DNA of 64,000 nucleotides from NCBI RefSeq assembly GCF_057098645.1, contig NZ_CM169472.1; one strand, given 5' to 3'. Below, in pieces: positions 1,986 through 30,708 of this stretch (the stretch's first letter is position 1; each line of letters starts with the position of its first letter). Position numbers and translations under genes: made by a program. The notes beneath the pieces were generated by a model. That model saw nothing but the letters and a program-made list of their open reading frames with translations, ran no database searches and had not been told where the DNA came from.

Positions 1986-2115
1986 CAGGCACAAAAAAAC
2001 CACCCGAAGGTGGTTTCACGACACTGCTTATTGCTTTGATTTTATTCTTATCTTTCCCATGGTACCCGGAGCGGGACTTGAACCCGCACAGCGCGAACGC
2101 CGAGGGATTTTAAAT
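1986..2115. repeat. Left direct repeat (attL) of island: 130-bp copy of leuZ 3' end (56 nt) plus downstream terminator region
   Basis: 130 bp with one mismatch to 30579..30708; contains a tRNA-Leu 3' fragment (2060..2115, minus) and a hairpin/T-run copy (about 1993..2017). Confidence 0.85.
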
Positions 2116-2412
2116 TCTACGCAATATCAATGAGTTACATAGCAGTGCATTGCGAAACTTTGCTGACGTTGAATGGTCGTCTTTGCAACCACTGGCAGAA
2201 AATGGATAGCCGTAGATTGCGTTGAGCACAGAAACAGCACAGGGTAATCGTCTACTTGGTCCTGTAAAGGAGGTTGTTGCCACACAAGCTAAAGCGCTTG
2301 ACCTGCCCCCAGTATTCGGTACAACTGTCAGTTAGTAATATCTGTTCTGTGAACCGCTCTCTGAATGTGATCCATTCATAATCAGCGCTACCTTTAGAGG
2401 TTGAATACCCAG

Positions 2413-2440
2413 CCCCTGGTAAACATAACGTTCCAGGGGG
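2413..2440 (-). terminator. Putative rho-independent terminator downstream of the DUF262/DUF1524 gene
   Basis: Inverted repeat cccctgg...ccagggg just 3' of the minus-strand ORF ending at 2463. Confidence 0.4.
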
Positions 2441-2462
2441 TACTTTGCGATGAAGGATATTT

Positions 2463-4334
2463 TTACAGCGTAAATTCGTTTCCGGGTCCAGTGCCCAGGT
2501 TATTTACTATATAAGCATCTATTCTCTGATCATTAAATCGCCAGCAGTCAATGGCAAGATCCATCAGCAGGCGTTGCCTTGATGTGATGCTTTCCGCAGA
2601 CCAGTCTTGATATTCATATCCATATTTCAGCTTAAAGCGATTTAATGCAGTGTTATCACCAATTGAGTACTGGGAGTGGAGTAATCGAGTCATGATGATT
2701 TCAGAGTTTAAATATTCTGTTTGTTTTTTCAAAAACCAGTCTTCACTCAAATCATTGCAGTTATTGACAGACTGGTTAATTGTACCCTCTAATAATGTTA
2801 CATTACCAAGTTTGTAGAGATAACTTGTTCGATTTACATCAGAGAACTCCCCGTTTTCAGGGGCGTTTCGTACCGTCTGAGGAAGAATATGCTCAATTTG
2901 CATCTGCTGAATAGCCTGCTGGCTCTTTTCCGGAAAACCGCAAAGATGGCGGATATGATTCTCTAATCTACCCAATACATAACGTTGGCGATACTGAGGC
3001 GTAAAATTATAGTCATTAATAATTGAGAATCGTTCTTTAAATTCATCTAAACGCTCCACAACAAAAGGTATAAGTGTTGCTGAAACAACATTTGCAACCT
3101 CTGCTTTCGTTTTCACATCCCGAAGCTTTACAGCCCATTGAGTAAAGCGTTGCTCATATGTCTTCGATTGAATAGCCATTGTATTTGTAAAGAATAAAAA
3201 GCTCTCAAGTTGAGCACCTAAGAAATCCATTACATCATCTGAACAACTAATATCCAATGCCATTAGTAAAACCAAATGCTGACGTGAGCGATATTTATTA
3301 ATATATCCAATGTTACTTACGTTTGGAAAACGGATATTTTCACGCCAGTAGGCTGCTTCATTTGTTGCATTGACCAGGTTAGCGTATCGTTCTGATAATT
3401 TTTCCAATTCTTTGACGAGGACCATAGGGCGTGTCTTATACTGCAACGACAGTTCCCCCTCAGCTGAAATGATCCATTTATATATATCATCTTCACGCAA
3501 AATCCCGTGATGATATCGTGCCATCAGAAAGTAACGTAAAAAACGAAGCGGGTTATCACTTTCGCCGCAAGACTCAAGGTTATTAGTGATGGATTTCCAT
3601 GTTGTCTTTATTGCCGAAAACTGTTCTTCTTTTATCTGACTGAAAATCAAATTTTTAACAAGATCCATAGCATTAAGGCTGGCACCACGCTGATTGATCG
3701 TTTCGAAGATCTTTAATGCGCTACTTAAGTTCTCTGATTCAATGACAACCAGCTCAACTTTTGTTAAAAAAAAGCGAGCGAAGGAGATTAATCCATTCAA
3801 GCTATCTTGCAATTGGTATTTAAGATAATCACGAATGTGATCATACGCGTCAGCCATTTTTTTTACTGAAGCTGTTTCCGCAAAGGTATTGGTTTGCCCT
3901 TCAATTAACCGCGAAATAAATCCTCGACTTTCTTCATATTGAAGATCTAGTCTAATTAGATTTTCCTCACTATTAATATCATAACTAGAGAGCCATTCCT
4001 CAATAGTTTTCAGATATTCCAGCCCTTTTTTGTCAAGTGTATCCAATCTATCTTTTAATAGATCCCGTAAGGCACACATAGTGATGACAATAGTGGTCAA
4101 CCGCTGCTGTCCGTCAATAACATCATGCTTTTCCCCATTCTTTACGATAATAACAGAACCGAGAAAATAACCATTTTGATCTTTCTGCTCTGGTTGGTAT
4201 TCATTGTCTAAATCCATGAGAAACTGTTCAACCTGATCATCAACCTTCCATACATACTCACGTTGATAATCGGGAACTAAAAAATAATAATCGCTTAATT
4301 TTGATATATTTTTTACATCGGCTTCTATTTTCAT
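2463..4334 (-). CDS. DUF262 (ParB-like NTPase) / DUF1524 (HNH-like) fusion protein, GmrSD-like type IV restriction-type nuclease
   Basis: 623-aa ORF; N-terminal DGQQR motif typical of DUF262, C-terminal ...QIEHILPQ... His-Me finger-like motif typical of DUF1524; AT-rich. Confidence 0.65.
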   Translation of the reverse strand: MKIEADVKNISKLSDYYFLVPDYQREYVWKVDDQVEQFLMDLDNEYQPEQKDQNGYFLGSVIIVKNGEKHDVIDGQQRLTTIVITMCALRDLLKDRLDTLDKKGLEYLKTIEEWLSSYDINSEENLIRLDLQYEESRGFISRLIEGQTNTFAETASVKKMADAYDHIRDYLKYQLQDSLNGLISFARFFLTKVELVVIESENLSSALKIFETINQRGASLNAMDLVKNLIFSQIKEEQFSAIKTTWKSITNNLESCGESDNPLRFLRYFLMARYHHGILREDDIYKWIISAEGELSLQYKTRPMVLVKELEKLSERYANLVNATNEAAYWRENIRFPNVSNIGYINKYRSRQHLVLLMALDISCSDDVMDFLGAQLESFLFFTNTMAIQSKTYEQRFTQWAVKLRDVKTKAEVANVVSATLIPFVVERLDEFKERFSIINDYNFTPQYRQRYVLGRLENHIRHLCGFPEKSQQAIQQMQIEHILPQTVRNAPENGEFSDVNRTSYLYKLGNVTLLEGTINQSVNNCNDLSEDWFLKKQTEYLNSEIIMTRLLHSQYSIGDNTALNRFKLKYGYEYQDWSAESITSRQRLLMDLAIDCWRFNDQRIDAYIVNNLGTGPGNEFTL

Positions 4335-4391
4335 TTTATATCCTTACATAGCTGGATGAACACCATAGATCATACTGATCCCAGATCCAAT

Positions 4392-4901
4392 TCACAAACG
4401 AACAGGAGAGTAGACCCCTTCTACATTACAGCTATCTCCGTCATCAAAAATCAACTCTCCTGCACTATAACCATCCATGGATAAAATAGCCTTTTCATTG
4501 AGAGCCAGACTAAGGCACATTGATGTTTTTATCATATTATCTGTACCATAAATCTCATACCAGTTATCTTCTTTTTTAGAAACCTCTACCTCATACTTTC
4601 CTGAGTCAATATTAACCATGCTAAATACATTATCTACATCACATGAATCCTTGCTATCTGTAAAAATTATTTTTTTATCATAGCCATCAACCCTGAGATA
4701 TGCGTCTTCAGAATAAGCATAAACATAACAATATTTAGTATTAACAAAAGAATCCTTCCCAGTAATTTGATATAAATTACTATCTTTTCTTGTGACATTT
4801 ATTTCCCACGTATTGGCATGAACATAACCTGGAGCCAAAAACAGGGTTAATAAGAACGGTCCAATCTTGGCTTTAAAGTTTCTAACAATTTTGAAAAACA
4901 T
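4392..4901 (-). CDS. Secreted hypothetical protein with internal tandem duplication
   Basis: 169-aa ORF; N-terminal signal peptide (...LLTLFLAPGYVHA); two ~50-aa repeats each ending in a DSCDV/DSCNV motif; no recognisable family. Confidence 0.55.
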   Translation of the reverse strand: MFFKIVRNFKAKIGPFLLTLFLAPGYVHANTWEINVTRKDSNLYQITGKDSFVNTKYCYVYAYSEDAYLRVDGYDKKIIFTDSKDSCDVDNVFSMVNIDSGKYEVEVSKKEDNWYEIYGTDNMIKTSMCLSLALNEKAILSMDGYSAGELIFDDGDSCNVEGVYSPVRL

Positions 4902-4952: not shown

Positions 4953-5708
4953 CTACATATCAGCCAACAACATCCCAGCCATGCCATCCAGCCGTTTCTT
5001 GACCTTTTCCCACCCAGGCATAACCTGCCCCATCAGGCGGTAAAACTCTTCACTGTGGTTGTGCTCAGCAACATGGCATAACTCATGTAGCAAAACATAA
5101 TCGATACATTCTGAGGATGCCTTAACCAGCCATGGATTCAGGGTCAGACAGCCTTTTGCTGAACAGTTGCCCCATTGCGTTTGCATCGCCCGCAGACGTA
5201 TCGGAGGACGCTCACTGACCCAAAGGGTCTGCGGAATCAGTAAATCAAGCCTGCGCTGAAAAACATCTCTGGCACGTTCCCGATACCATTCAGCCAGCAA
5301 GGCTTTAATCTTTTCTGCCGATTTGTGTCTGACAGTCACTTCCAGACGCCCACGCAACATTTTCACTCGTTGCGGCACAGTAGCGTCTTCTGTCACTTTC
5401 AACTGATATTGCTTACCGAGATAATAATGGCTTTCTCCGCTGACATACTGACGCGGAACAATGTGTGTCTGTTGCTCCCTGAAATCACGCAGTTGCTGGT
5501 ATATCCAGCGCCCACGTTTTTTCAGCGCAGACAATACCTCGTGCTCCGGTGTTTCAGGCGGTACAGAGGCCACAACCCGGCAGTCCGGATAAACCTTGAT
5601 GAGCACCCTGCCCTTTACGACCTGACGCGGAACACACTGTACGACGATGACCTCATCACCATAGACAATGCGTAACGCTTTCATTGATGGCGATTCTTTT
5701 TCACTCAT
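4953..5708 (-). CDS. DUF45 / M48-like zinc metallopeptidase (YgjP-like)
   Basis: 251-aa ORF with HELCHVAEHNH (HExxH) motif; start overlaps hsdR stop by 4 bp, implying co-transcription; this family commonly follows hsdR. Confidence 0.7.
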   Translation of the reverse strand: MSEKESPSMKALRIVYGDEVIVVQCVPRQVVKGRVLIKVYPDCRVVASVPPETPEHEVLSALKKRGRWIYQQLRDFREQQTHIVPRQYVSGESHYYLGKQYQLKVTEDATVPQRVKMLRGRLEVTVRHKSAEKIKALLAEWYRERARDVFQRRLDLLIPQTLWVSERPPIRLRAMQTQWGNCSAKGCLTLNPWLVKASSECIDYVLLHELCHVAEHNHSEEFYRLMGQVMPGWEKVKKRLDGMAGMLLADM

Positions 5709-8700
5709 GATTTCATCAAACCAACGCGCAGTATCTGGATGATGGTTTCCACAATACGGTTAACCTGATTCATTCCGGCACCAATTTCCCGGCAGGCCGT
5801 AAACAGCAGTGGTAGCAGACTTGTCTTAACGACTTTCTCAATGTCCTGGGGGTTCAGGGAGTTTTCTGCCACCGCTTTGACGATAATGTTGTCCACGTCA
5901 AAAGCCAGCTTCGTCCACTTATCCTGCACTTGAACGTCTTTTACCACAAAAACCTCAGGTAGCTCTTTTTTAAATACACCGTAATATGCCTGAGCATGCT
6001 TGTTTACCGCCAAAGCATCCGGGATATCACTGAGCTTACGGGCTTTAACCTGTTCTTCAAACTCACGGAATAAGAGGTACTGCTTAAGTGGATGGTCGAA
6101 CAGTTTTTCAGCCTCTTCGATTGCCATACGCAGGAGTCTGGAAAAGGCCTCCTGAGCATACGGATCATCACGCAGCTCCTGCTCAATCATCTTCGTCACA
6201 CGGGTTTTAATGATGTCGGTTTCATTGCGGGTTTTATTGTTATCCCACTCTTCGGGTTTTTCGCTCTTGCCCATTTTACCGACTTCATACACGCCATCCG
6301 GTTCACGAACCTCAACGCCGGTAACATGCTTATCCAGCAATTTTTTCACCTGCTCAGCGTAGTCGTCATAATTGACCTGCTCTCCACTTACCTGCATCGC
6401 CCACTGGCGAAGGCTGGACATCTGTTTTACGGTTTCTTTATAGAGATTTCGGTCTTGTTCCGTAAAGCTCTTGTCGGTGAAGAAGGTAGCGGACTGCAGT
6501 GCCACTTTCAGGCATCCGGCAAAGGCCGTTAACGCCTCGAAGAAATCATCACGGGTTTTCTGATGGATATCGACCATCTCTCCGTCACGTTCTTCCATTT
6601 TAGGCACCAGTACTGCACGTAACTGCTCAGTATCATTTTTGTTTTTAACACCGGCAAATATGGCCCACAACTGGTTATACAGATGCGGCAGACGTTTATA
6701 TTCAGAGCTCATGGCGCTGTACAGCCCGTCAATATCCTTGATGTCGTATCCTCCCTGGGTTCGGGAGGCGAGATCCTGATATTTGCCGATAGTCGTGTCC
6801 AGTTCAGCCAGAATGCCGCGATAATCAATCAGCAGGCCAAACTTTTTCAGTGGATGCAGACGGTTTACCCTTGCAATCGCCTGGATAAGGTTGTGGGACT
6901 TAAGCGGCTTGTCGATATACAGCACGGTATTCTTCGGTTCATCAAATCCGGTGAGCAGTTTATCAACGACGATCAGTAATTTGAGCTTATCATCAGTATC
7001 GAAACGACTGATGATATTGCGGGTATACACAGACTCATCCTGCATGCCGACGTTATCTTTCCACCATTTCGTCACTTCCGGCAGTTTGCTTTCATCCACC
7101 TCAGTATTCCCTTCCCGGGTATCCGGCGGGCTGATAACTACAGCTGACTCAAACAACCCGGCTTCATCAAGATACTTTTTATATTTGATGGCGGAAATCT
7201 TGCTGTCGCAGGCAAGTTGGCCTTTCAGCCCCTCATCAATATTCTTCGAGAAGTGTGTGGCGATATCGAGTGCGATCAGCCGGATGCGGTCATCTGCACT
7301 GTAGACCTCACCTTTACGGGCATATTTACGTTTAAGGTCGGCTTTTTGCGCTTCGCTTAACCCATCGGTAATACGGTCAAACCAGGCATCTATTGCCCGA
7401 TCGTTAACCTCAAGGTCGGGAATACGTTCTTCATACAGCAAAGGTGTAACGGCTTTATCTTCTACCGCTCGCTGCATGGTATAAGCGTGGACAATCGGCC
7501 CGAATTTATTGGTGGTCTTATCTTCTTTTAGCAATGGCGTACCGGTGAATGCCACAAAGGCGGCGTTCGGCAGTGCCAGTTTCATTCGCACATGGTTCTC
7601 ACCCCCCTGGCTGCGGTGTCCTTCATCAATCAGAACGATGATGTCGGGGCTGGTATTGACGCATTCAGGCAATTTTGTCGCTGAGTTAAATTTCTGGATA
7701 AGGGTAAAGATTATACGTTCTTTACCAGAGCCAATCTGCTGTGCCAGCTTCTGACCTGAGGTCGCCATCGCTTTGGCCTTATCATCCTTCCCTGCCAGTT
7801 CGCCACCAGAGACAAAAGTGCCGCTGAGCTGCCCTTCAAGGTCCACGCGGTCCGTCACCACCACAATACGACACTGCTTCAGGCTGTCATGAAGGATCAG
7901 CGCCTTGCTGAGGAATACCATGGTGTAAGATTTACCTGACCTCGTGGTATGCCAGATCACCCCACCTTCCCTGCCCCCGTCTGGTCTGCGGGTACTGATG
8001 CGTTCCAGCAGTCTTTTTATCCCGAACACCTGCTGATAGCGGGCAACAATTTTTCCGGTTTTTTTATCAAACAGGGTGAAGAAGCGGGTCATCTCCAGCA
8101 GACGTTCCGGTGAAAGCAGACTGATGAGCAGCTTATCCTGCCCGCTGACTGCCAGTTCCCCCCCATCGATTAACTGTTGATACCATTTGAGATCGACTGA
8201 AGGACGATGATCAAACAACGCATGAATTTGTTCAGTCGATAACTGATGGTTGCGCAGCGCATACATCTGCGGATCGGTAATATCTTCTTCGCGCCATGCC
8301 GCCCAGAATTTCATTGGCGTATGGCATGTACCGTAGCGCCCGTCATGACCGTTAATCGAAAGTAATAACTGGCTGTAGACAAACAGCTGCGGGATTTCAT
8401 CGTTGAACTGGTTGCGGATACTCTGGGATATCCCCTCGTCAATGGTTGGCCCTTTCTTGCCATGACCAGCCGGGCTTTTCGCTTCAATAACAGCCAGCGG
8501 GATACCATTAACAAAGCAGACAATATCCGGTCTGCGGGTTTCAACACCGCCTGACCGCAATACCGTAAATTCTTCAGTAAAATGGAACTGGTTATTTTCC
8601 GGATGTTCCCAGTCGATCAGCGCAATGGTGGGGTTGACCTTCTTGCCATCGACAAATTCGGTGACGGCGATACCGTAGAGCAGATGGTTATACATCCGTT

Positions 8701-8989
8701 CATTGGCTTTGAGCAGCCCTTCATTCAGCGCCGGAGAACAGACCTGTGATATCAGGTTATCCAGTGCTTTTTCCGATAACTGGCAGTTTTTGCCACCCGC
8801 CATAAAGGAACGCTTCGACAGCTCTTCACGCAGAACCGGACGCAGCACCACCTCATCCTGTTTATAGCCCCGGTAATCCATAATCTGTTTCGGAGATAAA
8901 AACGTCCAGCCGAGGCTGGTCAGTAACGTCAGTGCCGGGATTTTGGCGCTGTATTCTTCCTGGAATTTAGGTTGGTAGTGCTTATCCAC
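5705..8989 (-). CDS. hsdR: Type I restriction enzyme R (restriction/translocase) subunit
   Basis: 1094-aa ORF with helicase-type motifs (e.g. VLIDEGHRSQ DEAH-like box); operon context with hsdM/hsdS. Confidence 0.88.
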   Translation of the reverse strand: MDKHYQPKFQEEYSAKIPALTLLTSLGWTFLSPKQIMDYRGYKQDEVVLRPVLREELSKRSFMAGGKNCQLSEKALDNLISQVCSPALNEGLLKANERMYNHLLYGIAVTEFVDGKKVNPTIALIDWEHPENNQFHFTEEFTVLRSGGVETRRPDIVCFVNGIPLAVIEAKSPAGHGKKGPTIDEGISQSIRNQFNDEIPQLFVYSQLLLSINGHDGRYGTCHTPMKFWAAWREEDITDPQMYALRNHQLSTEQIHALFDHRPSVDLKWYQQLIDGGELAVSGQDKLLISLLSPERLLEMTRFFTLFDKKTGKIVARYQQVFGIKRLLERISTRRPDGGREGGVIWHTTRSGKSYTMVFLSKALILHDSLKQCRIVVVTDRVDLEGQLSGTFVSGGELAGKDDKAKAMATSGQKLAQQIGSGKERIIFTLIQKFNSATKLPECVNTSPDIIVLIDEGHRSQGGENHVRMKLALPNAAFVAFTGTPLLKEDKTTNKFGPIVHAYTMQRAVEDKAVTPLLYEERIPDLEVNDRAIDAWFDRITDGLSEAQKADLKRKYARKGEVYSADDRIRLIALDIATHFSKNIDEGLKGQLACDSKISAIKYKKYLDEAGLFESAVVISPPDTREGNTEVDESKLPEVTKWWKDNVGMQDESVYTRNIISRFDTDDKLKLLIVVDKLLTGFDEPKNTVLYIDKPLKSHNLIQAIARVNRLHPLKKFGLLIDYRGILAELDTTIGKYQDLASRTQGGYDIKDIDGLYSAMSSEYKRLPHLYNQLWAIFAGVKNKNDTEQLRAVLVPKMEERDGEMVDIHQKTRDDFFEALTAFAGCLKVALQSATFFTDKSFTEQDRNLYKETVKQMSSLRQWAMQVSGEQVNYDDYAEQVKKLLDKHVTGVEVREPDGVYEVGKMGKSEKPEEWDNNKTRNETDIIKTRVTKMIEQELRDDPYAQEAFSRLLRMAIEEAEKLFDHPLKQYLLFREFEEQVKARKLSDIPDALAVNKHAQAYYGVFKKELPEVFVVKDVQVQDKWTKLAFDVDNIIVKAVAENSLNPQDIEKVVKTSLLPLLFTACREIGAGMNQVNRIVETIIQILRVGLMKS

Positions 8990-9058: not shown

Positions 9059-10843
9059 TTATGATGAAAAGAACGGCGAGTCCCGATAAAGGCGATTGTA
9101 CTTGACCTGTTCTGTTTCGCCCTTGTTTACATTACCAAATTTCTCCTGATGCGTCGTACAGCAGGAACCACAGGATGCACAAATAAATCGTCCTTCTGAA
9201 CATTTTTCATGCAAATCCCTGGCGTCAATTATTTCGCTGCATTTGTAACCAATACAGTGATTAATGTAATGCCCGATACCAAACTGTTCGCACGAATGAC
9301 TGGCACATTTAAAGACGGTCAGGCGATACGCGGCCTGGAAAGGTTTTTTCACAAATCCTTTCGACTTTGTATCCCAGACGCTGACTTCCACACGAGCATA
9401 TTTCATATCTGGAACCATCAGCACCCCACAACTTCGGCAATGCAAGCGGGAATGTAATTCTCTGATACGATTGAAATACCCAGCCAGTTTAATTGGGAAA
9501 TCCCGCTTAGAAGGTTCGCCTGCAATCAGATAGGTCATGCCATAGTGGGCAAGCCAGTCATAAATAGTGAAGTCGATGTAATCCCGACTGAGGTCGGGTA
9601 GTACCTGCGGATCATGGCAGATTTTCGAACGACAAAGGAATTTTTTCTCTATCGTTCCGTCAGGTTGTTTTGCATTCCAGTGAAATGCCTCACAGGATAA
9701 TTTTAAATTCCGGGAACGAATTTTCAATGAGCTACACTGTGGGAACAATTTGAAAACAGAAGGATGGCTTACCGGGATTTTACCCGACAACACTCCCTGC
9801 CATATCTCATGCAGAATAATACTCAGAACGGACTGTTCATCGTTACGCCCAATCAGCGGTAACAATTTACTCAGAATAAAGTATTCAGGGTCAGAAGAAA
9901 TTTCAGTATTCGACTCAATATCATTAACAAAACTGAAATCTTTCCTGAACATCTTCTGTTTAATCAAATACTTATTGACAAAAGGACTAATCACGGAATG
10001 TTTATAAAATTGCTCTCTCGATGAGAATTTCTGCTGATAGGCATCACGGACAAATGGTTGTATATCCATTTTATTTTTCGTGAAACTACGTCGAACAAAA
10101 TTCTCTATATCATCATGCCGATGTTCAAGAATCCGCTCGCTGCTTATACAATCGTAAAATGCCAGGTAGAGAATAGCACTTATAGATATATGGCTGAGTA
10201 ATTCATTGATGATGTCCGATGTTGAAGCCCCCTGGCAATCCGTAGCCGCAGAACACCTTTTCACCCAAACAGCGAACTGATCAATGTTATTATCGATAAA
10301 TGACGAAGGCATGACTGCAGGAGATATTTGTTGTGCGGTCAAATCATCAAAATTCTTATCAGAGGCGAAAAGTGCAAACTGGTTATCGTAGTTACGTGAT
10401 TTTAAAAATAGCGGCAAGACTTTTGTAGCAGCTATATCACTGGTAACTAACCGAATTATAGCCCTTTCGCCAAAGGACTGAGTGAGAAAATTAATAACGC
10501 AGTCACGATAACGCCAACGAGCGAAATCAACGCCCTCCTCAATAATAGCCCGGAGATATTCAATAAGGAGCTCAGCCGTCTCCTCATCTGTTTTATCAAG
10601 AATGTGAACATTAAAAGCCGTAGGCTTACCATTTTTACCTGTACCTTCCCTGAACAGCACCGGTGCATTGTCTGCGGGTGTATAGTTCCGGCTTATCTCA
10701 TTCTTATGAAAAAACAGCTCATTACCATTCTCTGATAAGAGAAAGCCAAAGTTATTCTCCCGATCCGTTTTGCTGTTGTAGCCTCCGAACCAGAGAACAT
10801 TTCCCATGTACCACCGGGAACGATCCAGATTGTTCACTGCCAT
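9059..10843 (-). CDS. Hypothetical protein: N-terminal cold-shock-like (OB-fold) domain, large unknown middle region, C-terminal Cys-rich zinc-ribbon-like region
   Basis: ORF 9059..10921; start chosen at internal Met (MAVNNL...) to avoid a 56-bp overlap with the upstream gene; N-terminal NNFGFLLSENGNELFFHKNEI resembles the CspA-type GFGFI...VFVH motif; C-terminus has clustered CxxC / CxH / CxxC motifs. Confidence 0.55.
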   Translation of the reverse strand: MAVNNLDRSRWYMGNVLWFGGYNSKTDRENNFGFLLSENGNELFFHKNEISRNYTPADNAPVLFREGTGKNGKPTAFNVHILDKTDEETAELLIEYLRAIIEEGVDFARWRYRDCVINFLTQSFGERAIIRLVTSDIAATKVLPLFLKSRNYDNQFALFASDKNFDDLTAQQISPAVMPSSFIDNNIDQFAVWVKRCSAATDCQGASTSDIINELLSHISISAILYLAFYDCISSERILEHRHDDIENFVRRSFTKNKMDIQPFVRDAYQQKFSSREQFYKHSVISPFVNKYLIKQKMFRKDFSFVNDIESNTEISSDPEYFILSKLLPLIGRNDEQSVLSIILHEIWQGVLSGKIPVSHPSVFKLFPQCSSLKIRSRNLKLSCEAFHWNAKQPDGTIEKKFLCRSKICHDPQVLPDLSRDYIDFTIYDWLAHYGMTYLIAGEPSKRDFPIKLAGYFNRIRELHSRLHCRSCGVLMVPDMKYARVEVSVWDTKSKGFVKKPFQAAYRLTVFKCASHSCEQFGIGHYINHCIGYKCSEIIDARDLHEKCSEGRFICASCGSCCTTHQEKFGNVNKGETEQVKYNRLYRDSPFFSS

Positions 10844-10865
10844 GAGCAAGCCCCCTTCCGCTTTG

Positions 10866-11549
10866 TCAGTGCAGGCAGCACTTTTTAAATTTTTTACCAC
10901 TGCCACACTGACACGGGTCATTACGACCGGGCAGTTTTTCTGCCCCCTTCACGGGAACAGGCCGGGATGATGCCTCTGACATTCTCACCGACAACCAGTG
11001 CTGGTAAAGCGCCAGTGCCGCAGGCTGAATGAGAGTAATACTCTGTTCAAATTGAACAGGTGACATTTTCTCAACCACTGGGAAGTTCTTTTCAATACCA
11101 TGAAGGGCTATCGCCTCCAGCGAGGGACGTAAGGCCTCTGGCAAGGCTGACCAGTCATCCAGAGACCGGCCTTTCATATACCCGAAACACCACTCTTCGA
11201 CGATGGTATATGTCTTCCCCTTCACCTCACGTCCATTGAAAATCGGTTCAAACTGTTCAGGGGCCTCATACAGGCAGCCAGCGATATCGTTCATATGCTG
11301 AAAACACAGCCCCACAAAACGCGTCATCTCTTTTTCAGTGGTCCAGCGAGGGTGGTAATCACCTCGCCCCCAGATAGCACTGAGCCAGGTATTAGGGGAA
11401 ATCGTATTCGGGCCAGAGACAATCGCCGTCAGAAAGCCATCCAGCTCAGAGAAACAGAGCACAGAGTCATCATTGCCGTATTTCATCAACACCTCTTCCA
11501 GCCAGTCGATTTCCCGGTCAATCAGCGGCCCGCTTTTCGTCAGTTTCAT
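10866..11549 (-). CDS. YecA-like UPF0149 / SEC-C motif protein (island-borne paralog of core yecA)
   Basis: 227-aa ORF alignable over its whole length with YecA (1199..1864), roughly half identical by eye; same C-terminal [20 protein letters not shown] motif; start abuts the hsdS stop. Confidence 0.8.
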   Translation of the reverse strand: MKLTKSGPLIDREIDWLEEVLMKYGNDDSVLCFSELDGFLTAIVSGPNTISPNTWLSAIWGRGDYHPRWTTEKEMTRFVGLCFQHMNDIAGCLYEAPEQFEPIFNGREVKGKTYTIVEEWCFGYMKGRSLDDWSALPEALRPSLEAIALHGIEKNFPVVEKMSPVQFEQSITLIQPAALALYQHWLSVRMSEASSRPVPVKGAEKLPGRNDPCQCGSGKKFKKCCLH

Positions 11550-19400: not shown

Positions 19401-19440
19401 ACCAATGATCTGTGATTCGTGAAAGCAGTTCGCAGAAAGA

Positions 19441-19608: not shown

Positions 19609-19786
19609 GAACACGGAAAATAACGCTAATAATGCACTGAACATTCTTCCCGAATCAGCAAGCACAGCTGTAGACAACGATGAAAAATATCTGTCCTTTG
19701 CATTAGTTCTCGCTATCACGATTATGGGCAACTGAACCGCCCCGGGAATCCTGGAGACTAAACTTCCTGAGAAAGAGGTAAACAGG

Positions 19787-21662: not shown

Positions 21663-22418
21663 TTAACGCGTTTTTTCGCTGCTTTCCACTACCGGGGGAT
21701 TTTTCCTCAGTGACTCTCCCTGAAGGACCACTCGGTGTGAGTTATGTACCAGTCTGTCCAGGATGGCATCTGCTGTTGTTGGGTTCTCCATCAGACCATG
21801 CCATTTATCTACCGGGAACTGGCTTACCACTATCGTGCTGCTTTGTCCGTAACGATCCTCTATGAGCTCCAGAAGGTCATTACACTGGGCGTTACTTAAC
21901 TGTTCCAGCCCCAGATCGTCCAGGATTAGAACCTGTATTTTTTGCAACTGTTTCAGATATTTCAGCCAGCTGCCATCAACACGTCCCTGAGCCAGTTGTT
22001 CCAGTAATCGCCCGGTTCTACAGTACCGGACGCTGTGTTTCTGTCGACATGCCTGTTCGCCCAGCGCATTGGCTATCCAGCTCTTGCCACATCCTGTCGG
22101 ACCGGTTATCAGCAGGTTTTTCCTGTGGGTTATGTAGTGGCCGTTCAGCAGTTCTCTCATCTGTTCAGCCCGCAGACCTCTTGAGGCCGGATAGCGCAGC
22201 CCTTCCGGTGTTGCCTGGTATTTCAGGCCGGCATTTTTTCTCAACCGTGCCACACGGCTGTTTTCCCTGCTCAGAAGCTCGTCATCAACCAGCAGCGTCA
22301 GCCTTTCCTCGAACGACAGTTCGTCGTAGGTCTGAGGCGTTTCCCGCTGCCGTATCAGGCTCCCGGCCATCGCCGGGAGTTTCAGTTGGGTCAGTTTGTT
22401 TAACAGGTTATCACTCAT
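21663..22418 (-). CDS. istB: IS21-family helper ATPase IstB
   Basis: Walker A GPTGCGKS and Walker B-like ILDDLG motifs; start set at MSDNLLNKL within the longer ORF 21663..22661. Confidence 0.8.
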   Translation of the reverse strand: MSDNLLNKLTQLKLPAMAGSLIRQRETPQTYDELSFEERLTLLVDDELLSRENSRVARLRKNAGLKYQATPEGLRYPASRGLRAEQMRELLNGHYITHRKNLLITGPTGCGKSWIANALGEQACRQKHSVRYCRTGRLLEQLAQGRVDGSWLKYLKQLQKIQVLILDDLGLEQLSNAQCNDLLELIEDRYGQSSTIVVSQFPVDKWHGLMENPTTADAILDRLVHNSHRVVLQGESLRKNPPVVESSEKTR

Positions 22419-22434
22419 ACTGTTGTTCCTTCTG

Positions 22435-23970
22435 TCAGTGGTAGTAGCCCGGACCACGCAGGTTTTCATGCTCTGAAGCATATGCCGGATGTTGTTCGCC
22501 CTGGCGGGATAATGGAAGCTCCAGGTTCTCCCGATGGTGACGCAGCAGATTGTCGATAAAGCGTCTGTCAGGGGCGTTATAGTGCAGGGCAACGTAACAG
22601 GCCTTTTCCAGCCGTTCCGGGCCGTATTTTTTCTGAAGTGCCAGCAGCCCCAGAACTGCACGATAAGCCAGTTCCGGATGGGGTTTTGCCTTCAGCATGG
22701 ATTCAACCACCCGGCCTGTGGACGGGCCCGTACGTTTTCCCTGCTCGATCAGGCGTTCCGGTGTCCATGTCCCGTGCTGCCGGTGGCGCTCTGGCATGTG
22801 AAGCGGATTGGTTGTGTGTTTATATTCATGTGTGCTGCGCGGATGTTGCGCCACACACTGCCCCTTGTGCCAGAGCTGTACCACCGACTGCCCCGCCTTC
22901 AGTGACAGACGCTGACCGACCAGTTCGTGTGGAACGGAGTACCAGTGACGGGCATATTCAACGTGGTAGTCAGGGCCAACCTTCACAGCTTTGTATTCCG
23001 TGTATTCATAAGGTGCCAGAGGCAGCGGAGAGAGTGCTGGCGCATCCAGTATGCGGAAGCGTTCTGCACGGGTTTGATTGCCGTACCCCTTCATTGGCCG
23101 GTTATTCATGTCTGTCAGTAACTCCCTAAGGCGCGCATTCAGCGCCCTGAGCGTGTGGAAGGTTTCATTACGGATGCGGGCAAGAAGCCATCGTTCAACG
23201 ATGAGGACGCCGTTTTCTGCTTTTGGTTTATCTTTAGGTTTGCGTGGTCGGGCCGGGATGATAACCGTGCCATAGTGCTCAGCCAGTGCCTGATAACTGT
23301 CGTTGATGACAGGCTCATATCGATCGGCCTTTTTCACTGCGCTTCTGAGGTTATCGGGGATGAGCAGCTTCGGTACGCCGCCCAGGAAGGTCAGGCAACG
23401 GCTGTGGGCATTTAACCATGACATCATGTCCTGACCTTCGCACGCTTCAACGTAGGTATAGTTGGACGCCCCCATTACGGCCACGAAGATTGCCACGCGG
23501 CGTATCTCACCGGTGTCCGGATTAATAACAGGAACCGTAGGACCACAGAAGTCGATAAAAAGCTTTTCGCCGGCACGATGCTCCTGGCGCATGGAGAGAC
23601 GTCGCGTTTTTTTCCACTCCCGGTAGCAACGGCAGAAGTGCGAGTATCCCATCGCTTTGTTACCCGCCTGTGCCTTGTATTCCATCCACAACAGTTGCCG
23701 CGTCACACCTGGTTTTCTCATTTCCGTATCGAAGTACAACATGTCAGGCATTACAAGCTCTGATGCAAAGGTGTCTTTGGGCGGAAAAATGAGTTTCTCC
23801 AGCGTGTCATGGGATATATCAGCAGGTAATGGCCATGACAGAGAAGAGGCTTTGAAGCGGGCAAGAACCTCAAAAACGGTTGAGGCGCTGATGTGTAACG
23901 TCAGTCCGATACAACGGTTAGTCAGCTTCTTGTCGAACTTGAGCTGAAGGATCTTAAAACAGGTTTCCAT
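22435..23970 (-). CDS. istA: IS21-family transposase IstA
   Basis: Large ORF 22435..24081 with N-terminal HTH and DDE catalytic region; start uncertain (internal Met chosen); overlaps istB start, as typical for IS21. Confidence 0.75.
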   Translation of the reverse strand: METCFKILQLKFDKKLTNRCIGLTLHISASTVFEVLARFKASSLSWPLPADISHDTLEKLIFPPKDTFASELVMPDMLYFDTEMRKPGVTRQLLWMEYKAQAGNKAMGYSHFCRCYREWKKTRRLSMRQEHRAGEKLFIDFCGPTVPVINPDTGEIRRVAIFVAVMGASNYTYVEACEGQDMMSWLNAHSRCLTFLGGVPKLLIPDNLRSAVKKADRYEPVINDSYQALAEHYGTVIIPARPRKPKDKPKAENGVLIVERWLLARIRNETFHTLRALNARLRELLTDMNNRPMKGYGNQTRAERFRILDAPALSPLPLAPYEYTEYKAVKVGPDYHVEYARHWYSVPHELVGQRLSLKAGQSVVQLWHKGQCVAQHPRSTHEYKHTTNPLHMPERHRQHGTWTPERLIEQGKRTGPSTGRVVESMLKAKPHPELAYRAVLGLLALQKKYGPERLEKACYVALHYNAPDRRFIDNLLRHHRENLELPLSRQGEQHPAYASEHENLRGPGYYH

Positions 23971-24594
23971 AGTGCTCCTGGATTTTCTCTTTCTGGACAT
24001 TGACGTCTCCACTGGTTTAAACACGGCAATGGAGACTGTGGTGAAAAGAGTTAATTCCCGGAGTGACTGGCAGGATGCCAATCAATGATCGGAAGCATGC
24101 CAAATCGTGATCGATTGTGATGCCAAACTGTGATCGGAGATGGATGCCAAATCATGATCGATTCGAATGCCAAACTGCGATCGATTCAGATGCCATTTTG
24201 CAGCCGGGGGGGACGAACTCCCGGCATTTTTTCGGAGTTAACTATGAGCAATAATTTGCAGGACATCCTCGCTGCCGCATCGGGGTATCAGTCCGTGACT
24301 TCAGAGCCAGCGCTCAATCTTAAAAGACCTAAAACGCTTGATGATTATCCTGTGATACCACCTGCATCAAAAAAAGTATCTGTTATTTCAAGTGACCTGA
24401 CACTCCATATCGGTTTTGATACCGAATATGTTTTCAATCCTGAAACACAACAGAATGATATTCTGTCATATCAGAGTTATGTTGTCTTACCCGATAATAC
24501 AGGTATATCGAACATTATCTATCCACCTGACTCACAGAAAAAATCCCGGCTGTCTTTTAAGAACTTTCTCTGTCAAACGATTATGGATTTGCCC

Positions 24595-25500
24595 CTATAT
24601 TTCCAGACATCTGTTATCACTTAACCCATTACAAGCCCGCTGCCGCAGATATTCCCGTGGCGAGCGATAACCCAGCGCACTATGCGGATGCCATTCGTTA
24701 TAATGCTCGAACGCCTCTGCAAGGTTCTTTGCTGCCGTTAACCCGTCTGGTTTGGGCATGATACTGATGTAGTCACGCTTTATCGTTTTCACGAAGCTCT
24801 CTGCTATTCCGTTACTCTCCGGACTCCGCACCGCCGTGTTCTTCGGTTCAAGTCCCAACATCCGGGCGAACTGGCGTGTTTCATTAGCCCGGTAGCATGA
24901 ACCATTATCCGTCAGCCACTCCACTGGAGACGACGGAAGATCGTTGCCGAAGCGGCGTTCCACCGCTCCCAGCATGACGTCCTGTACTGTTTCACTGTTG
25001 AAGCCGCCGGTAGTCACCGCCCAGTGCAGTGCCTCACGATCACAGCAGTCCAGCGCGAACGTGACACGCAGTCTCTCTCCGTTATCACAGCAGAACTCGA
25101 ACCCGTCAGAGCACCATCGCTGATTGCTTTCTTTCACGGCCACTCTGCCTGTATGTGCCCGTTTCGATGGCGGTACAGCAGGTTTTCGCTCAAGCAACAG
25201 CGCATTCTGGCGCATGATCCGGTAAACACGTTTGGCATTGATCGCAGGCATACCATCAAGTTCTGCCTGTCTGCGAAGCAGCGCCCATACCCGACGATAA
25301 CCATACGTGGGCAGCTCTCCGATAACATGGTGTATACGGAGAAGCACATCCGTATCATCAGTGTGACGACTGCGGCGGCCATCCATCCAGTCATCGGTTC
25401 GTCTGAGAATGACGTGCAACTGCGCACGCGACACCCGGAGACAACGGCTGACTAAGCTTACTCCCCATCCCCGGGCAATAAGGGCGCGTGCGCTATCCAC
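24595..25500 (-). CDS. insD: IS2 transposase OrfB (InsD)
   Basis: 301-aa [24 protein letters not shown]... with DDE integrase core; overlaps insC as expected for a frameshift-fusion transposase. Confidence 0.85.
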
Positions 25501-25823
25501 TTTTTTGCCCGTCCATATTCAACGGCTTCTTTGAGGAGTTCATTTTCCATCGTTTTCTTGCCGAGCAGGCGCTGGAGTTCTTTAATCTGCTTCATGGCGG
25601 CAGCAAGTTCAGAGGCAGGAACAACCTGTTCTCCGGCGGCCACAGCAGTAAGACTTCCTTCCTGGTATTGCTTACGCCAGAGAAATAACTGGCTGGCTGC
25701 TACACCATGTTGCCGGGCAACGAGGGAGACCGTCATCCCCGGTTCAAAGCTCTGCTGAACAATTGCGATCTTTTCCTGTGTGGTACGCCGTCTGCGTTTC
25801 TCCGGCCCTAAGACATCAATCAT
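25458..25823 (-). CDS. insC: IS2 transposase OrfA (InsC)
   Basis: Starts [26 protein letters not shown]..., the InsC sequence as recalled; taken from the internal Met of ORF 25458..25868. Confidence 0.85.
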
Positions 25824-27974
25824 CTGTTCTCCAATGACTAGTCTAAAAACTAGTATTAAGACTATCACTTATTTAAGTGATACTGGTTGTCTGGAGATTC
25901 AGGGGGCCAGTCTAGATTACACCGCTTCTTGAAACGGGTGTGATTACAAAATGGCCCGGTATTATTAATATATATGCGCATTTCATTCGTGCGGATATCA
26001 CCTCCTTTGCCAATTTCTGGTCAGACTACAAAATTCTTCTGAAAGGAATACGCGGTACTGTCAGCAGCTTCAAAAATCGTTACGGTATCGATTTTGATGA
26101 ACAGCAGGAACGTCGCGTAAAGACTGAACAGATAATGTTTGACAAACGAACTTCCCCTCCGCGTTGCAGTAACGTAGCTTTCATCGATACACTGCTTATC
26201 ACTCCCGGGGGTATGGGTCTGGCTGAATGTGGTGAATTACTGGGTCTTCCCAAACTGACCATTCCTGCACCTTATTCCATAACCAATATGCGTGAATATC
26301 TTCTGGGCGACAGAGCAGGGTTTGAAGCCTATGCTCTGCGGGATGCCGAGATTGCGGTTCGTTATGCTTTACAGGTTCGCAATTTTTGCGCCCGGGAGCT
26401 GATGATTGATCGTGTCCCCGCCACCATCGGGGCGATGGCAGTTTCACGGTTCACCAAAACACTTAAAGAAAACAATATGTCTCCTGAAGTCTGCCTTGGG
26501 ACACACATTAAAACCCGTGAACTCTGGCTCACGGAGAAACAGGCATTCCGGACGATTAAAAACCCCGCCAGTGTTCCTTCAAGAGAGCTGTTTGAAACGT
26601 TCCCGATCAACTGTTACCACGGCGGACGCAATGAGTGTTTTATGATGGGGGTTACACCGTCTGATCACTGGTATGACTACGATCTGGCTGGAGCGTATAC
26701 CACCGGGCTATTAGATATCCTCATACCCGATTACGGAAACATCCGCCTCAGTAAAAATCCGGACGATTACTGTGGGCATGTAATGGGATTTGCGTTTGTC
26801 ACATTTCAGTTCCCGGAATCAGTTCCCTATCCCAGCCTGCCGGTTCGGACCGATCAATATGGGTTATTCTTTCCATTAAGTGGCGAATCATGGGCAACGG
26901 CACCTGAAATCGAACTTGCTCTGTCGCTCGGGGCAGAGATGACGATCCATAATGGGATCATCGTCCCCTGGATCTGTGACACCTCCCCACATAACAGCGA
27001 ATCAACATCGGTGTTTCTTCCCTTTGTTCAACAGGTCCGTGAGAACCGTAATCGCCATATTAAAGGTTCTCTGGAGGAGAAATTCTGGAAAGAAATTGGC
27101 AACTCGCTTTATGGCAAACTTGCTCAGGGCCTTCGCGCCAAAACCGCCTTTGATACTGCCCGTGGATTAAACAGATCCCTCCCACCATCATCGGTTACTC
27201 AGCCATTCTTTGCTGCGCATGTGACGGGATTTATCCGCGCCGTTGTCGGGGAACTCATGAATGCTTTGCCTTCTGATTCATCGGTTGTCAGCGTCACAAC
27301 CGATGGCTTTTTGACAAATTGCCCACTTAACAAGATAAACATGAGCGGTCCACTGTCTTCCCGCTTCCAGTCGCTGTGCGATATTGTTGATCCGGGTTCA
27401 TCAATGTTGACATGTAAGCATGAGGTCAGCCAGCTTATCGCCATGAAAACCCGGGGGCAGTTAACCTATAGAGCTATTCAGGGAAAACCTGTTGTTCATG
27501 CCAGGGCTGGCGTCAAACCTCCTGCCGATATTCCACGCAGTGACTATAACGACTATATGGTAGATCTTTACCTTAATCGTTTACCCGGTCAGACGTTATC
27601 CCGAAGTACGTTGATATCAACGCGTGAGATGTGGCTGTCGGAAAGCGATCTGGTATCCCGGGAACAGGATATCCGTCTTAATCTGGAATTCGATTTCAAA
27701 CGCCAGCCCGTACAGCCCGCCATGAATGAAGGGCATTTACTGATGTCTTCCCGCCCATGGGATAATATGGAAGAGGCTCTGCAGCAACGCTCTCTTTTCG
27801 ACGACTGGCGGCAAACGCATACACTGAAGACCCTGGCTGACTGGGATGACTGGTGTGATTTTCTCTATTGCCGGACGGTGTTTTCTGATATGAAACTAAA
27901 AGTCGGAAGCAAACGTAGTGATGATATTTTAGTCAGACTATTTCTCCGGGCGCTGACTCAGTGCCAATGGGGGC

Positions 27975-28523
27975 TTATGCTGAAAGATAAAAAAAGTTAT
28001 TCCTGTAAAGAGGTTGCTGAATGGCTGACGTCAGAAGGCTATTCAGTAACATGTCAAAAAGCACCTGCTGGATCTCCCGGGCCCGAAGGTCGCAGTAACG
28101 TATCTTCCCCAGACGAGGTTCAATGTATTGCGTGAAACGCTGAACATCCTTATCCCAGGACTTTTTATGGCGTTTGATGAACGGAACATAGGTCTGGTGA
28201 AAAAACTCACTAAGTGTTGGCATCGCACGATAATTATCGCGTTCTGCTTTAGGGTCATTTCCCAGTGCAATCGCCTCCTTGTGACGACGAGCTATCTGAC
28301 GGGCTGTCCCCACATCGATTTCAGGGAATCTGCCAATACTGATACTTTTTTTGGTACCGTGGAATGTGTAGCGCAGGAGGAAACGTTTGTTACCCGTTCG
28401 ACCTGAGAGACATTTGAGGCCTATGACCTCGGTATCTGATACCTCAAGCTCTGTAGATCGGGTATCTGTGTTTGCCGGAAGGGCTTTGATGGATGAATTG
28501 GTGAATCGGAAGGATTTTTGCAT
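27975..28523 (-). pseudogene. Truncated P4-type integrase (N-terminal arm-binding domain only)
   Basis: ORF 27975..28553; MQKSFRFTNSSIKALP...GTARQIARRHKEAIALGNDP resembles the DUF4102 arm-binding N-terminus of P4-family integrases; no catalytic domain; 3' part overlaps the piPolB 3' end on the opposite strand. Confidence 0.5.
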
Positions 28524-28709
28524 ATTTATCCTCATGTATCTGATTGATATCATGAAAATAATATATATCTGAAGGTGTTTTTATTACGGGGCAGGATTGA
28601 AGAATGGAAAAGCTATTAGACGCGTACAAACGGATATTGCAGGAAGTTAACGCCCAGTCATTTAACCTGAATGAGGATAAATACTCAGGCGTCTTTTTAC
28701 CCGTGCCGT

Positions 28710-29766
28710 GGCTTTGTTGAATAAATCGAACTTTTGCTGAGTTGAAGGATCAGATCACGCATCTTCCCGACAACGCAGACCGTTCCGTGGCAAAGCAAAA
28801 GTTCAAAATCACCAACTGGCCCACCTACAATAAAGCCCTCATCAACCGTGGCTCCATAACTTTCTGGCTGGATGATGAAGCTATTCAGGCCTGGTATGAG
28901 TCAGCAACACCTTCTTCACGAGGCAGACCTCAGCGCTATTCTGACCTTGCCATCACGACTGTGCTGGTCATTAAACGCGTATTCAGGCTGACCCTGCGCG
29001 CTGCGCAGGGCTTTATTGATTCCATTTTTTCTCTGATGAACGTTCCGCTACGCTGCCCGGATTACAGCTGTGTCAGCAGGCGGGCAAAGTCGGTTAATGT
29101 CAGTTTCAAAACGCCCACCCGGGGTGAAATCGCACATCTGGTGATTGATTCCACCGGGCTGAAGGTCTTCGGTGAAGGCGAGTGGAAAGTCAAAAAGCAT
29201 GGCCAGGAACGCCGCCGTATCTGGCGTAAGCTGCATCTCGCCGTTGACAGTAAAACACATGAAATCATCTGTGCAGACCTGTCGCTGAACAACGTTACGG
29301 ACTCAGAGGCCTTCCCCGGGTTAATCCGGCAAACCCACCGGAAAATCAGGTCAGCCGCCGCCGATGGCGCTTACGATACCCGGCTATGTCACGATGAACT
29401 GCGGCGTAAGAAAATCAGCGCGCTTATCCCTCCCCGAAAAGGTGCGGGCTACTGGCCCGGTGAATATGCAGACCGTAACCGTGCAGTGGCTAATCAGCGA
29501 ATGACCGGGAGTAATGCGCGGTGGAAATGGACAACAGATTACAACCGTCGCTCGATAGCGGAAACGGCGATGTACCGGGTAAAACAGCTGTTCGGGGGTT
29601 CACTGACGCTGCGTGACTACGATGGTCAGGTTGCGGAGGCTATGGCCCTGGTACGAGCGCTGAACAAAATGACGAAAGCAGGTATGCCTGAAAGCGTGCG
29701 TATTGCCTGAAAACACAACCCGCTACGGGGGAGACTTACCCGAAATCTGATTTATTCAACAAAGCC
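28710..29766 (+). mobile_element. IS5-family (IS903-group) insertion sequence, copy 2
   Basis: Same ends as copy 1 (GGCTTTGTTGAATAAATC inverted repeats), inverted relative to copy 1; flanked by 9-bp target duplication CCGTGCCGT (28701..28709 and 29767..29775). Confidence 0.85.
28742..29710 (+). CDS. IS903-group (IS5 family) transposase
   Basis: 322-aa ORF identical in sequence to the one at 12245..13213. Confidence 0.88.
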   Translation: MKDQITHLPDNADRSVAKQKFKITNWPTYNKALINRGSITFWLDDEAIQAWYESATPSSRGRPQRYSDLAITTVLVIKRVFRLTLRAAQGFIDSIFSLMNVPLRCPDYSCVSRRAKSVNVSFKTPTRGEIAHLVIDSTGLKVFGEGEWKVKKHGQERRRIWRKLHLAVDSKTHEIICADLSLNNVTDSEAFPGLIRQTHRKIRSAAADGAYDTRLCHDELRRKKISALIPPRKGAGYWPGEYADRNRAVANQRMTGSNARWKWTTDYNRRSIAETAMYRVKQLFGGSLTLRDYDGQVAEAMALVRALNKMTKAGMPESVRIA

Positions 29767-30578
29767 CCGTGCCGTTTGAAGAATACTGGCATTCACCGAT
29801 AAAAATCATGCTGGTTGGACGTGAAACCGCAGGCTGGAATACGCTGAATGGTAAGAATACGATATCACGGGTGTTGGGACTTATACCTGACGTCACCATC
29901 GGGCAAGTGGTTGAAGAAGCTGTAGATCGTTACAGGAAACATCTTCCGGTACAAAATTATGGCACCGCCAACCTCAAATCACGTAGCCGCTTCACGCAAT
30001 ATCATTTCAGGCTGGCCCGGGAGCTTAATATTCTTCCCCAGGCAATCGTGTATGCCAATCTACTGGCGTGGGATTACGACGGACTGACCCCTCTCAATCG
30101 CCCTCAAAATGAAGTGCAGGAAGTCATATTAGCCTCGCTGAAGCTACTGGCGGTACAAATTAAACACCTTGAGCCTGATTTCATCATCTTTGCATCTGGA
30201 GCCCGGAGAACAGACTACATCATAAAACAGGTGCTTACTGAGCTAGGCGGCTATGAGACTTCTTCAGTCATTCCGGGGAAGCTGTGGGAGTTCAAAACAG
30301 GTAATACAATCTGTTTCAGAATTGCCCATCCAAGGGCTATGCGCGGACACCAGAAGTACAGAGATGAGGTGATTGCACGAATTAAGCAACTTTGTACTCA
30401 GGGTGGCTAGAGCATTACAGCTTGCTCAGCAGGGCCCCTTCCCGGAAGAGTACCGGAAAACAGGCAAAGCAACCTGGTTCTCTATGCTGGAGGCGACACG
30501 TTCGATTCGGCATTGCCAGGCTGGAGATTGCAGCTCATTGCACCCCGTGAGCACAGGATATGCACAGGACATGAATTT

Positions 30579-30708
30579 CAGGCACAAAAAAACCACCCGG
30601 AGGTGGTTTCACGACACTGCTTATTGCTTTGATTTTATTCTTATCTTTCCCATGGTACCCGGAGCGGGACTTGAACCCGCACAGCGCGAACGCCGAGGGA
30701 TTTTAAAT
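30579..30708. repeat. Right direct repeat (attR): leuZ 3' end plus downstream terminator region
   Basis: 130 bp matching 1986..2115 with one mismatch; overlaps the intact tRNA-Leu 3' 56 nt. Confidence 0.85.
30586..30612 (-). terminator. Rho-independent terminator of the glyW-cysT-leuZ tRNA operon
   Basis: Minus-strand hairpin aaccacc-tccg-ggtggtt followed by a T7 run immediately 3' of leuZ. Confidence 0.7.

Follow-up and report, generated by a model that had tools for sequence, protein, structure and literature searches.

At the 3′ end of the tRNA-Leu gene leuZ, the 64,000-nucleotide stretch of contig NZ_CM169472.1 (RefSeq assembly GCF_057098645.1) analysed here, referred to as the window, carries an island at positions 1986–30708. 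The question raised by this locus is whether the island is a pipolin, i.e., an element encoding its own family-B DNA polymerase (piPolB), as proposed in a sequence-only reading, and in which state it has been preserved. Following the analyses described below, the region is very probably an Escherichia coli pipolin at leuZ belonging to the deletion sub-lineage of O145:H28/clonal complex 32 (CC32) strains, which has been eroded further and is probably a fixed remnant. Three loci were used for comparison, namely the island of strain PapRG-06-5, which is the closest relative free of insertion sequences (IS), that of strain MDK6L1, serving as the complete pipolin reference, and that of RM9872 (O145:H28). 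For the genome survey, 5,426 complete RefSeq E. coli genomes were used.

The island is bracketed by two direct repeats of 130 bp, both on the minus strand, with attL at 1986–2115 and attR at 30579–30708. Pairwise alignment revealed 129 of 130 positions to be identical, reproducing the single mismatch and the boundaries of the sequence-only reading, and a repeat finder extended the pair to 133 nt, starting from 1983 and 30576, respectively. No other direct-repeat family of at least 40 nt was found by the repeat finder in the first 40 kb, and a 27-nt att core occurred twice in the window versus zero occurrences expected from 100 shuffles. ARAGORN and Rfam placed the intact tRNA-Leu(UAA) gene on the minus strand at 30653–30739, with tRNA-Cys and tRNA-Gly coming next, and the right repeat therefore consists of the 3′-terminal 56 nt of this gene and 74 nt downstream of it. 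The left repeat is an orphan copy comprising the same last 56 nt of tRNA-Leu and the 74-nt 3′ trailer, including the complete 3′ETS-leuZ RNA and the terminator. When folded, the trailer formed a hairpin of 9 bp with a U-run behind it, and the composition claimed earlier for the repeat, a tRNA end plus an operon terminator, was confirmed in both parts. The sole mismatch between attL and attR is the second base of the hairpin tetraloop. A repeat end inside a tRNA gene is typical of tRNA-targeting integrases.

To its left, the island is flanked by tyrP and yecA, and to its right by cysT, glyW and pgsA. When positions 1–2115 were joined to the sequence from 30709 onward, a single alignment with the tyrP-yecA-leuZ-cysT-glyW-pgsA region of K-12 MG1655 was obtained over 3,745 bp, with 98.8% identity and one 1-bp gap. 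In K-12, the yecA-leuZ interval contains one repeat unit only, identical to the attL copy and with the same flanks, and the 28.5 kb between the repeats are missing. Removal of the island restores the uninterrupted K-12 site, which was the comparison suggested for checking the pipolin assignment. Identical boundaries were found around related, differing content in PapRG-06-5, MDK6L1 and RM9872. The element entered by site-specific recombination at the 130-bp att site formed by the leuZ 3′ end and its trailer, with tRNA and trailer left intact at attR and the orphan copy at attL; according to the literature, pipolins depend on tyrosine recombinases for both integration and excision. The lone single-nucleotide polymorphism (SNP) of the att site, G in attR versus A in attL and in K-12, was considered for mapping the crossover and for tracing the attR trailer to the pipolin. 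This use was rejected: both copies carry A in PapRG-06-5, and the G is shared by RM9872 alone, identifying it as a lineage SNP.

The polymerase gene is located on the plus strand in two pieces. The N-terminal fragment (24244–24583) comprises codons 1–113, including D59/E61 of the ExoI motif, and the C-terminal fragment (25915–28135) contains D368 of the PolA motif, KxxxNSxYG, TTD and KH-X8-KTRG, with foreign sequence past 28050. Once the intervening IS2 was taken out together with one of its two 5-bp duplicates, the pieces rejoined with substitutions only and no indels, yielding an open reading frame (ORF) of 851 aa. In the rejoined protein, D59, E61, D368, K613, H614, K623 and R625 have the same numbers as the residues mutated in the characterised enzyme of E. 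coli 3-373-03_S1_C2 (PMC5695915). KEIGNSLYG is found at 504–512, TTD at 573–575 and KH-X8-KTRG with its KTRG at 623–626; the replacement of DTD by TTD and of KxY by KH-X8-KTRG is specific to piPolBs (PMC5695915). The motifs listed earlier, among them a "DTD-like" one corresponding to TTD, are present, but the gene in which they lie is broken, being split by IS2. The rejoined protein is identical to that of RM9872, matches the 866-aa E. coli piPolBs in 818 of 823 residues, and falls into a 90%-identity cluster of 1,387 members. The piPolB segment was detected in 295 of the 5,426 complete genomes, always on the chromosome and nearly always as a single copy, and at leuZ in all four strains whose regions were examined. 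Near-identity to known piPolBs, motif numbering, att repeats and the K-12 empty site together uphold the assignment as a pipolin at tRNA-Leu.

Disruption of piPolB in the window is twofold. IS2 (24584–25914, minus strand; 1331 bp) splits the gene at codon 114 and is framed by the target-site duplication (TSD) GATTA, and an IS21-family element with istA/istB (21564–24202, minus strand; 2639 bp, TSD GCCGGG) lies 41 nt upstream of the start codon and parts piPolB from its upstream operon. The IS2/piPolB junction was found in none of the 5,426 genomes. Because the gene is disrupted, primer-independent DNA synthesis is not expected here. At the IS2 end (24584–24790), the element is only approximately 96–98% identical to the best IS2 matches in the surveyed genomes.

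A second lesion is older and shared with relatives. Compared to MDK6L1, 5,820 bp are missing in the window, in PapRG-06-5 and in RM9872, with the junction at window position 28050. In MDK6L1, this segment contains the last 42 piPolB codons, a 108-aa hypothetical protein next to piPolB, a helix-turn-helix (HTH) regulator presumed to be of the WYL type, DUF726, DUF2787, two hypotheticals beside the latter and the catalytic part of the tRNA-proximal integrase. What is left of this integrase ("IntSXT"/XerC_2) in the window is the N-terminal 158 codons only, i.e., the Arm DNA-binding domain (28050–28523, minus strand), with 95.9% DNA identity to the MDK6L1 gene. The piPolB reading frame now ends in approximately 28 codons (28050–28135) antisense to the integrase remnant instead of the native 42. 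The chimeric 851-aa polymerase ORF is open and was found on 331 public contigs, and the deletion form was present as one contiguous stretch in 31 complete genomes. Published models of the gammaproteobacterial pipolin core list piPolB, IntSXT, IntP2, DUF2787 and two orphans, with an associated WYL protein, and the IntSXT-type tRNA-proximal enzyme is proposed to be the main integrase (PMC11551731). The window lacks DUF2787, the WYL-type regulator and a complete IntSXT beside piPolB; pipolin membership stands nonetheless, since the deletion form has been described as a truncated pipolin subgroup (PMC11551731). An Arm-only XerC_2 is known from phylogroup D O145:H28/CC32 strains, where co-phylogeny with the host suggests low horizontal transfer (PMC7385651).

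Of the other maintenance genes, one is intact. The internal tyrosine recombinase ("IntP2"/XerC-like; 18270–19400, plus strand) is a full-length protein of 376 aa with one substitution versus PapRG-06-5 (PHROG integrase, E 5e-52), in agreement with the recombinase gene noted earlier. The AlpA-like ORF of the sequence-only reading does exist as an HTH/excisionase-like gene (19423–19608, plus strand), but it is a remnant with its start lost: a 143-bp deletion at 19422/19423 relative to PapRG-06-5 eliminated the sequence preceding the gene together with the start codon and the first five codons, and no in-frame start is left except for an internal TTG. ORF212, an orphan gene between excisionase and piPolB (19598–21549, plus strand), is split by an IS3-family element similar to IS629/IS1203 (19733–21042, plus strand; 1310 bp, TSD AAC), which features an ALIL frameshift pseudoknot. 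ORF212 was initially suspected to be the uracil-DNA glycosylase (UDG) of the island; it gave no Pfam or PDB match.

The UDG-like gene was instead located at the right end (28604–30410, plus strand), encoding 246 aa when intact and split after approximately codon 33 by an IS903-like element (28710–29765, plus strand) with a TSD of about 9 bp, CCGTGCCGT; its pieces, 28604–28709 and 29766–30410, correspond to positions 29173–29913 of the PapRG-06-5 locus. The 246-aa protein had no match in Pfam, NCBIfam or PDB sequence searches. Among its 186 homologues, mainly from Gammaproteobacteria, a few are labelled UDG-like by their sources. An AlphaFold (AF2) model calculated from a 40-sequence alignment reached a predicted local distance difference test (pLDDT) value of 89, compared with 47 for the single-sequence model, which was unusable, and matched structures of the UDG superfamily only, namely family-4 UDG 4zby (E 1e-5, TM 0.48–0.57), UdgX, SMUG1 and TDG. 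The family-wide invariant motifs GRETxGWN (G50-R-E-T-x-G55) and AHPR (A219-H-P-R222) resemble family-4 UDG motifs. The gene lies where Flament-Simon et al. reported a UDG, beside the integrase at the right-hand terminus of the element (PMC7385651). The UDG label given earlier is supported at the level of the predicted fold and applies to a gene that is split; lacking a Pfam model, this family may, judging from the model, represent an undescribed UDG family.

The cargo half of the island is led by a DUF262 protein of 623 aa (2463–4334, minus strand), which resembles GmrSD/SspE-type nucleases and matches the PADLOC model HEC-06 (E 1.3e-79). It is followed, likewise on the minus strand and intact, by a hypothetical protein of 169 aa (4392–4901), an M48/YgjP-like metallopeptidase of 251 aa (4953–5708; RefSeq annotation of the same gene in PapRG-06-5), the Type I restriction subunit HsdR of 1094 aa (5705–8989; TIGR00348, E 3.9e-136; PADLOC REase_I, 1366 bits), a cold-shock-domain (CSD) protein with an ORF of 620 aa (9059–10921; Pfam CSD, E 2.7e-4, and RefSeq annotation) and a YecA-family paralogue of 227 aa (10866–11549; PADLOC PDC-S12, E 8.5e-98). 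HEC-06 and PDC-S12 are candidate defence systems of PADLOC, and the two proteins match their protein models. The YecA paralogue is embedded between hsdR and hsdS and is 58% identical to the chromosomal YecA (1199–1864, minus strand) bordering the insertion site.

Of the Type I restriction-modification genes hsdR, hsdM and hsdS, only hsdR is intact. The hsdS gene (11546–13826, minus strand) is split by an IS903-like element of the IS5 family (12189–13245, minus strand; 1057 bp) with the 9-bp TSD GTGAGAAGC, and removal of the element and one TSD copy restored an ORF of 404 aa. The hsdM pseudogene (13816–15339, minus strand) has a CAG-to-TAG change at codon 397 of 507, with the stop at 14149–14151; the internal stop is also annotated in RM9872. 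HsdR requires the HsdM/HsdS core, and since both of these genes are broken, the Type I system should be inactive. Two plus-strand hypothetical genes complete this part of the island, the intact ORF411 (15643–16878; 411 aa, no family match) and the remnant of a 376-aa gene (17280–18126), in which a 284-bp internal deletion at 17711 relative to PapRG-06-5 shifts the frame. The sequence-only reading had considered this copy notable for defence cargo and a heavy IS load; both are present, but the main cargo, the Type I system, is broken and the island is not intact.

Altogether, the five insertion sequences, each with its TSD, account for 7,393 bp or 26% of the island. The gene order of PapRG-06-5, running from DUF262, hypothetical, M48 peptidase, HsdR, cold-shock-domain protein, YecA-family protein, HsdS and HsdM via two hypotheticals, tyrosine recombinase, 66-aa HTH protein and 212-aa orphan to the 851-aa protein, Arm-domain integrase pseudogene, 246-aa protein and tRNA-Leu, is preserved in nine collinear blocks with 97–99.9% identity. 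Compared to this relative, the length of the island closes exactly, with 28,593 bp = 21,595 bp (PapRG-06-5) + 7,393 bp (IS) + 32 bp (duplications) − 284 bp − 143 bp. The cargo half differs between strains, and the layout follows the two modules published for pipolins, in which the maintenance genes close to the tRNA are conserved, and the defence cargo, situated at the opposite end, is exchangeable. Between the two IS903-like copies, identity is 100%; they are inverted and 15.5 kb apart, which would readily allow the whole recombinase/piPolB segment to be inverted; as each copy keeps its own 9-bp duplication, no such inversion has taken place so far.

In the O145:H28/CC32 lineage, the 5.8-kb deletion fused the C-terminally shortened piPolB to the antisense strand of the truncated integrase, and afterwards five insertion sequences, two small deletions and one nonsense codon eroded the present copy. 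These lesions have inactivated the polymerase, the excisionase, ORF212 and the UDG-like gene as well as hsdM and hsdS. To judge from the literature, piPolB would replicate the excised element, and self-replication of this copy appears to have been lost. Excision would be at best impaired, given the loss of the excisionase and of the enzyme proposed as the main integrase, and the island has probably become a fixed part of the chromosome that is passed on vertically. For E. coli pipolins in general, no episomal form was detectable under standard conditions (PMC7385651). Potentially functional leftovers, to go by their intact reading frames, are DUF262/HEC-06, the YecA-like PDC-S12, HsdR, the M48 peptidase, the CSD protein and the internal recombinase.

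It is very unlikely that the island is instead an intact, mobile and self-replicating pipolin with an active defence arsenal, as was implicit in the sequence-only reading. The near-perfect att repeats, one full-length tyrosine recombinase, the full-length HsdR, DUF262/HEC-06 and YecA-like PDC-S12 proteins and a C-terminal piPolB fragment holding all catalytic polymerase motifs would be expected from such an element; the same element would not be expected to have its piPolB split at codon 114, cut off from the operon by the IS21-family element and deprived of its native last 42 residues, its excisionase start deleted, its tRNA-proximal integrase reduced to an Arm fragment, a stop in hsdM, and hsdS, the UDG-like gene and ORF212 split. 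In addition, the Arm-only integrase form is tied to co-phylogeny with the host and low transfer (PMC7385651).

A tandem composite at leuZ, in which a defence island adjoins a pipolin or a prophage remnant has contributed the Arm-domain integrase, is highly improbable. Prophages co-integrated beside pipolins have been reported, and these were accompanied by three att copies (PMC7385651); in the window, there are two copies only, with no third one detected even when 3 mismatches were allowed over the 27-nt core. The two recombinase genes are of different types, as a composite would predict, but the truncated one is the usual tRNA-proximal integrase of complete pipolins, as evident from its identity to the MDK6L1 gene. 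The strain-variable cargo half, which could likewise point to a separate island, is accommodated by the two-module layout described as normal pipolin architecture (PMC11551731), and no phage structural genes were found in the island. Finally, a local tandem duplication or an assembly artefact unrelated to site-specific integration, from which long near-identical repeats can also arise, is refuted, with next to no probability left, by the K-12 site with exactly one repeat copy and the same flanks but without the intervening 28.5 kb, and by the same boundaries around variable content in three independent strains, and is further contradicted by the repeat end inside the tRNA gene and by the always chromosomal occurrence of piPolB, at leuZ in the four strains examined.

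Several points weigh against the interpretation as a fixed, eroded pipolin. Immobility is what we infer, and with both att sites and one recombinase intact, excision could still be possible. We know of no report establishing which recombinase acts on this att site, and the att polymorphism, not being common to all pipolins, is uninformative on the crossover point. The 731-aa C-terminal ORF of piPolB, starting with GTG at 25940, remains open and could be expressed in principle. Pfam recognises the rejoined polymerase weakly (DNA_pol_B_2, E 0.0028), and no match was obtained for the C-terminal fragment in NCBIfam or for an 866-aa homologue in a PDB sequence search. As generic profiles barely detect the protein, its assignment to the family is based on the motifs and on its near-identity to the piPolBs of E. 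coli.

The att site of this pipolin has a further consequence concerning a regulatory RNA. In K-12, the 67 nt directly downstream of leuZ are annotated as 3′ETS-leuZ (b4759), which pairs with and down-regulates RyhB (PMC6191717). The complete 3′ETS-leuZ with its terminator lies inside the att repeat, at 1986–2059 and 30579–30652 on the minus strand, and the terminator tetraloop, UUCG in attL and UCCG in attR, is the only difference between the copies. Because the repeat holds all of 3′ETS-leuZ, a pipolin at leuZ leaves a second, orphan copy at attL. In the window, 347 nt separate the last cargo gene, DUF262/HEC-06, from the attL copy, which lies downstream of it and in the same orientation. 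A custom scan for T-runs and hairpins revealed no convincing terminator in this interval, the first strong one to follow DUF262 being the duplicated leuZ terminator. A consensus terminator scan of 1800–2700 missed the leuZ terminator copy at approximately 1990–2020, where direct folding showed the hairpin and U-run. The attL copy likely lies in the 3′ untranslated region of the DUF262 gene. An extra dose of sponge RNA is possible given that no convincing terminator separates DUF262 from the attL copy; that cargo transcription actually delivers such an island-controlled RNA, linking pipolin carriage to iron and envelope-stress small-RNA regulation, we regard as a rather unlikely, speculative extension. 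A text search of the main pipolin papers (PMC11551731, PMC7385651) gave no mention of the 3′ETS-leuZ duplication.

To the right of the island, positions 30709–49766 are collinear with RM9872 at 99.9% identity, 49766 being the end of the RM9872 locus compared, and contain pgsA, uvrC, uvrY, sdiA, tcy, fliZ, fliA, fliC, fliD and yed genes. From there to 64000, the ORF sizes fit the fliF-R region, and no further IS copies were found in 30709–64000.

The locus illustrates the decay of a self-replicating defence island after integrase loss, with a few cargo genes left intact. In two sister O145:H28-type lineages, one ancestral element has been broken down separately by different insertion sequences. 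It also cautions that motifs alone are insufficient to score piPolB or restriction-modification genes as present or functional. Beyond correct annotation its importance is small, with the att duplication of 3′ETS-leuZ as one point perhaps worth following.

Compared with known systems, the element shares with the reference pipolin 3-373-03_S1_C2 (PMC5695915, PMC7385651) the Leu-tRNA site between yecA and pgsA, terminal att-like repeats with attR over the tRNA, piPolB residues D59/E61 and D368, TTD and KH-X8-KTRG at identical numbers, an XerC-like recombinase plus excisionase, a UDG-like gene at the right end and restriction-modification cargo. Unlike the reference, this copy has piPolB in two pieces with 28 foreign residues replacing the native 42, an integrase without catalytic domain, a deleted DUF2787/HTH-regulator/DUF726 block and five inserted IS elements. 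The same IntSXT-piPolB deletion with an Arm-only integrase is found in "pipolin 2" (PMC11551731) and in the O145:H28 CC32 strains LREC247/250/251 and RM9872 (PMC7385651). The RM9872 island and approximately 19 kb of its right flank are 99.9–100% identical to the window, and the hsdM stop, the loss of 143 bp at the excisionase gene and the G in attR are common to both. The IS sites differ, RM9872 having three IS3-family copies (positions 5495–6708, 15476–16689 and 18188–19401 of its locus) and, not seen in the window, an IS-associated deletion of the hsdM 5′ part, ORF411, ORF376 and the 5′ part of the integrase, while keeping uninterrupted piPolB, hsdS and UDG-like genes, all three of which are interrupted in the window. 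Such differing IS patterns on a near-identical island fit an element that had become immobile, was passed on vertically and was then eroded by insertion sequences separately in each lineage.

With tRNA-targeting and defence islands carrying P4/SXT-type integrases, the element has in common integration into a tRNA 3′ end with regeneration of the tRNA, direct repeats, a tRNA-adjacent integrase and defence cargo; it differs from them in its self-encoded family-B polymerase and in an unusually long att site of 130 bp running through the whole trailer and terminator. The Leu-tRNA site, the att repeats, truncated piPolBs and RM9872 as a pipolin carrier have been published (PMC7385651), as have the deletion subgroup, IS-rich assemblies, the bimodular core-plus-cargo model and the Type I restriction-modification, PDC-S12 and HEC-06 cargo (PMC11551731). 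The element is already known, and it is found here in a further-decayed state.

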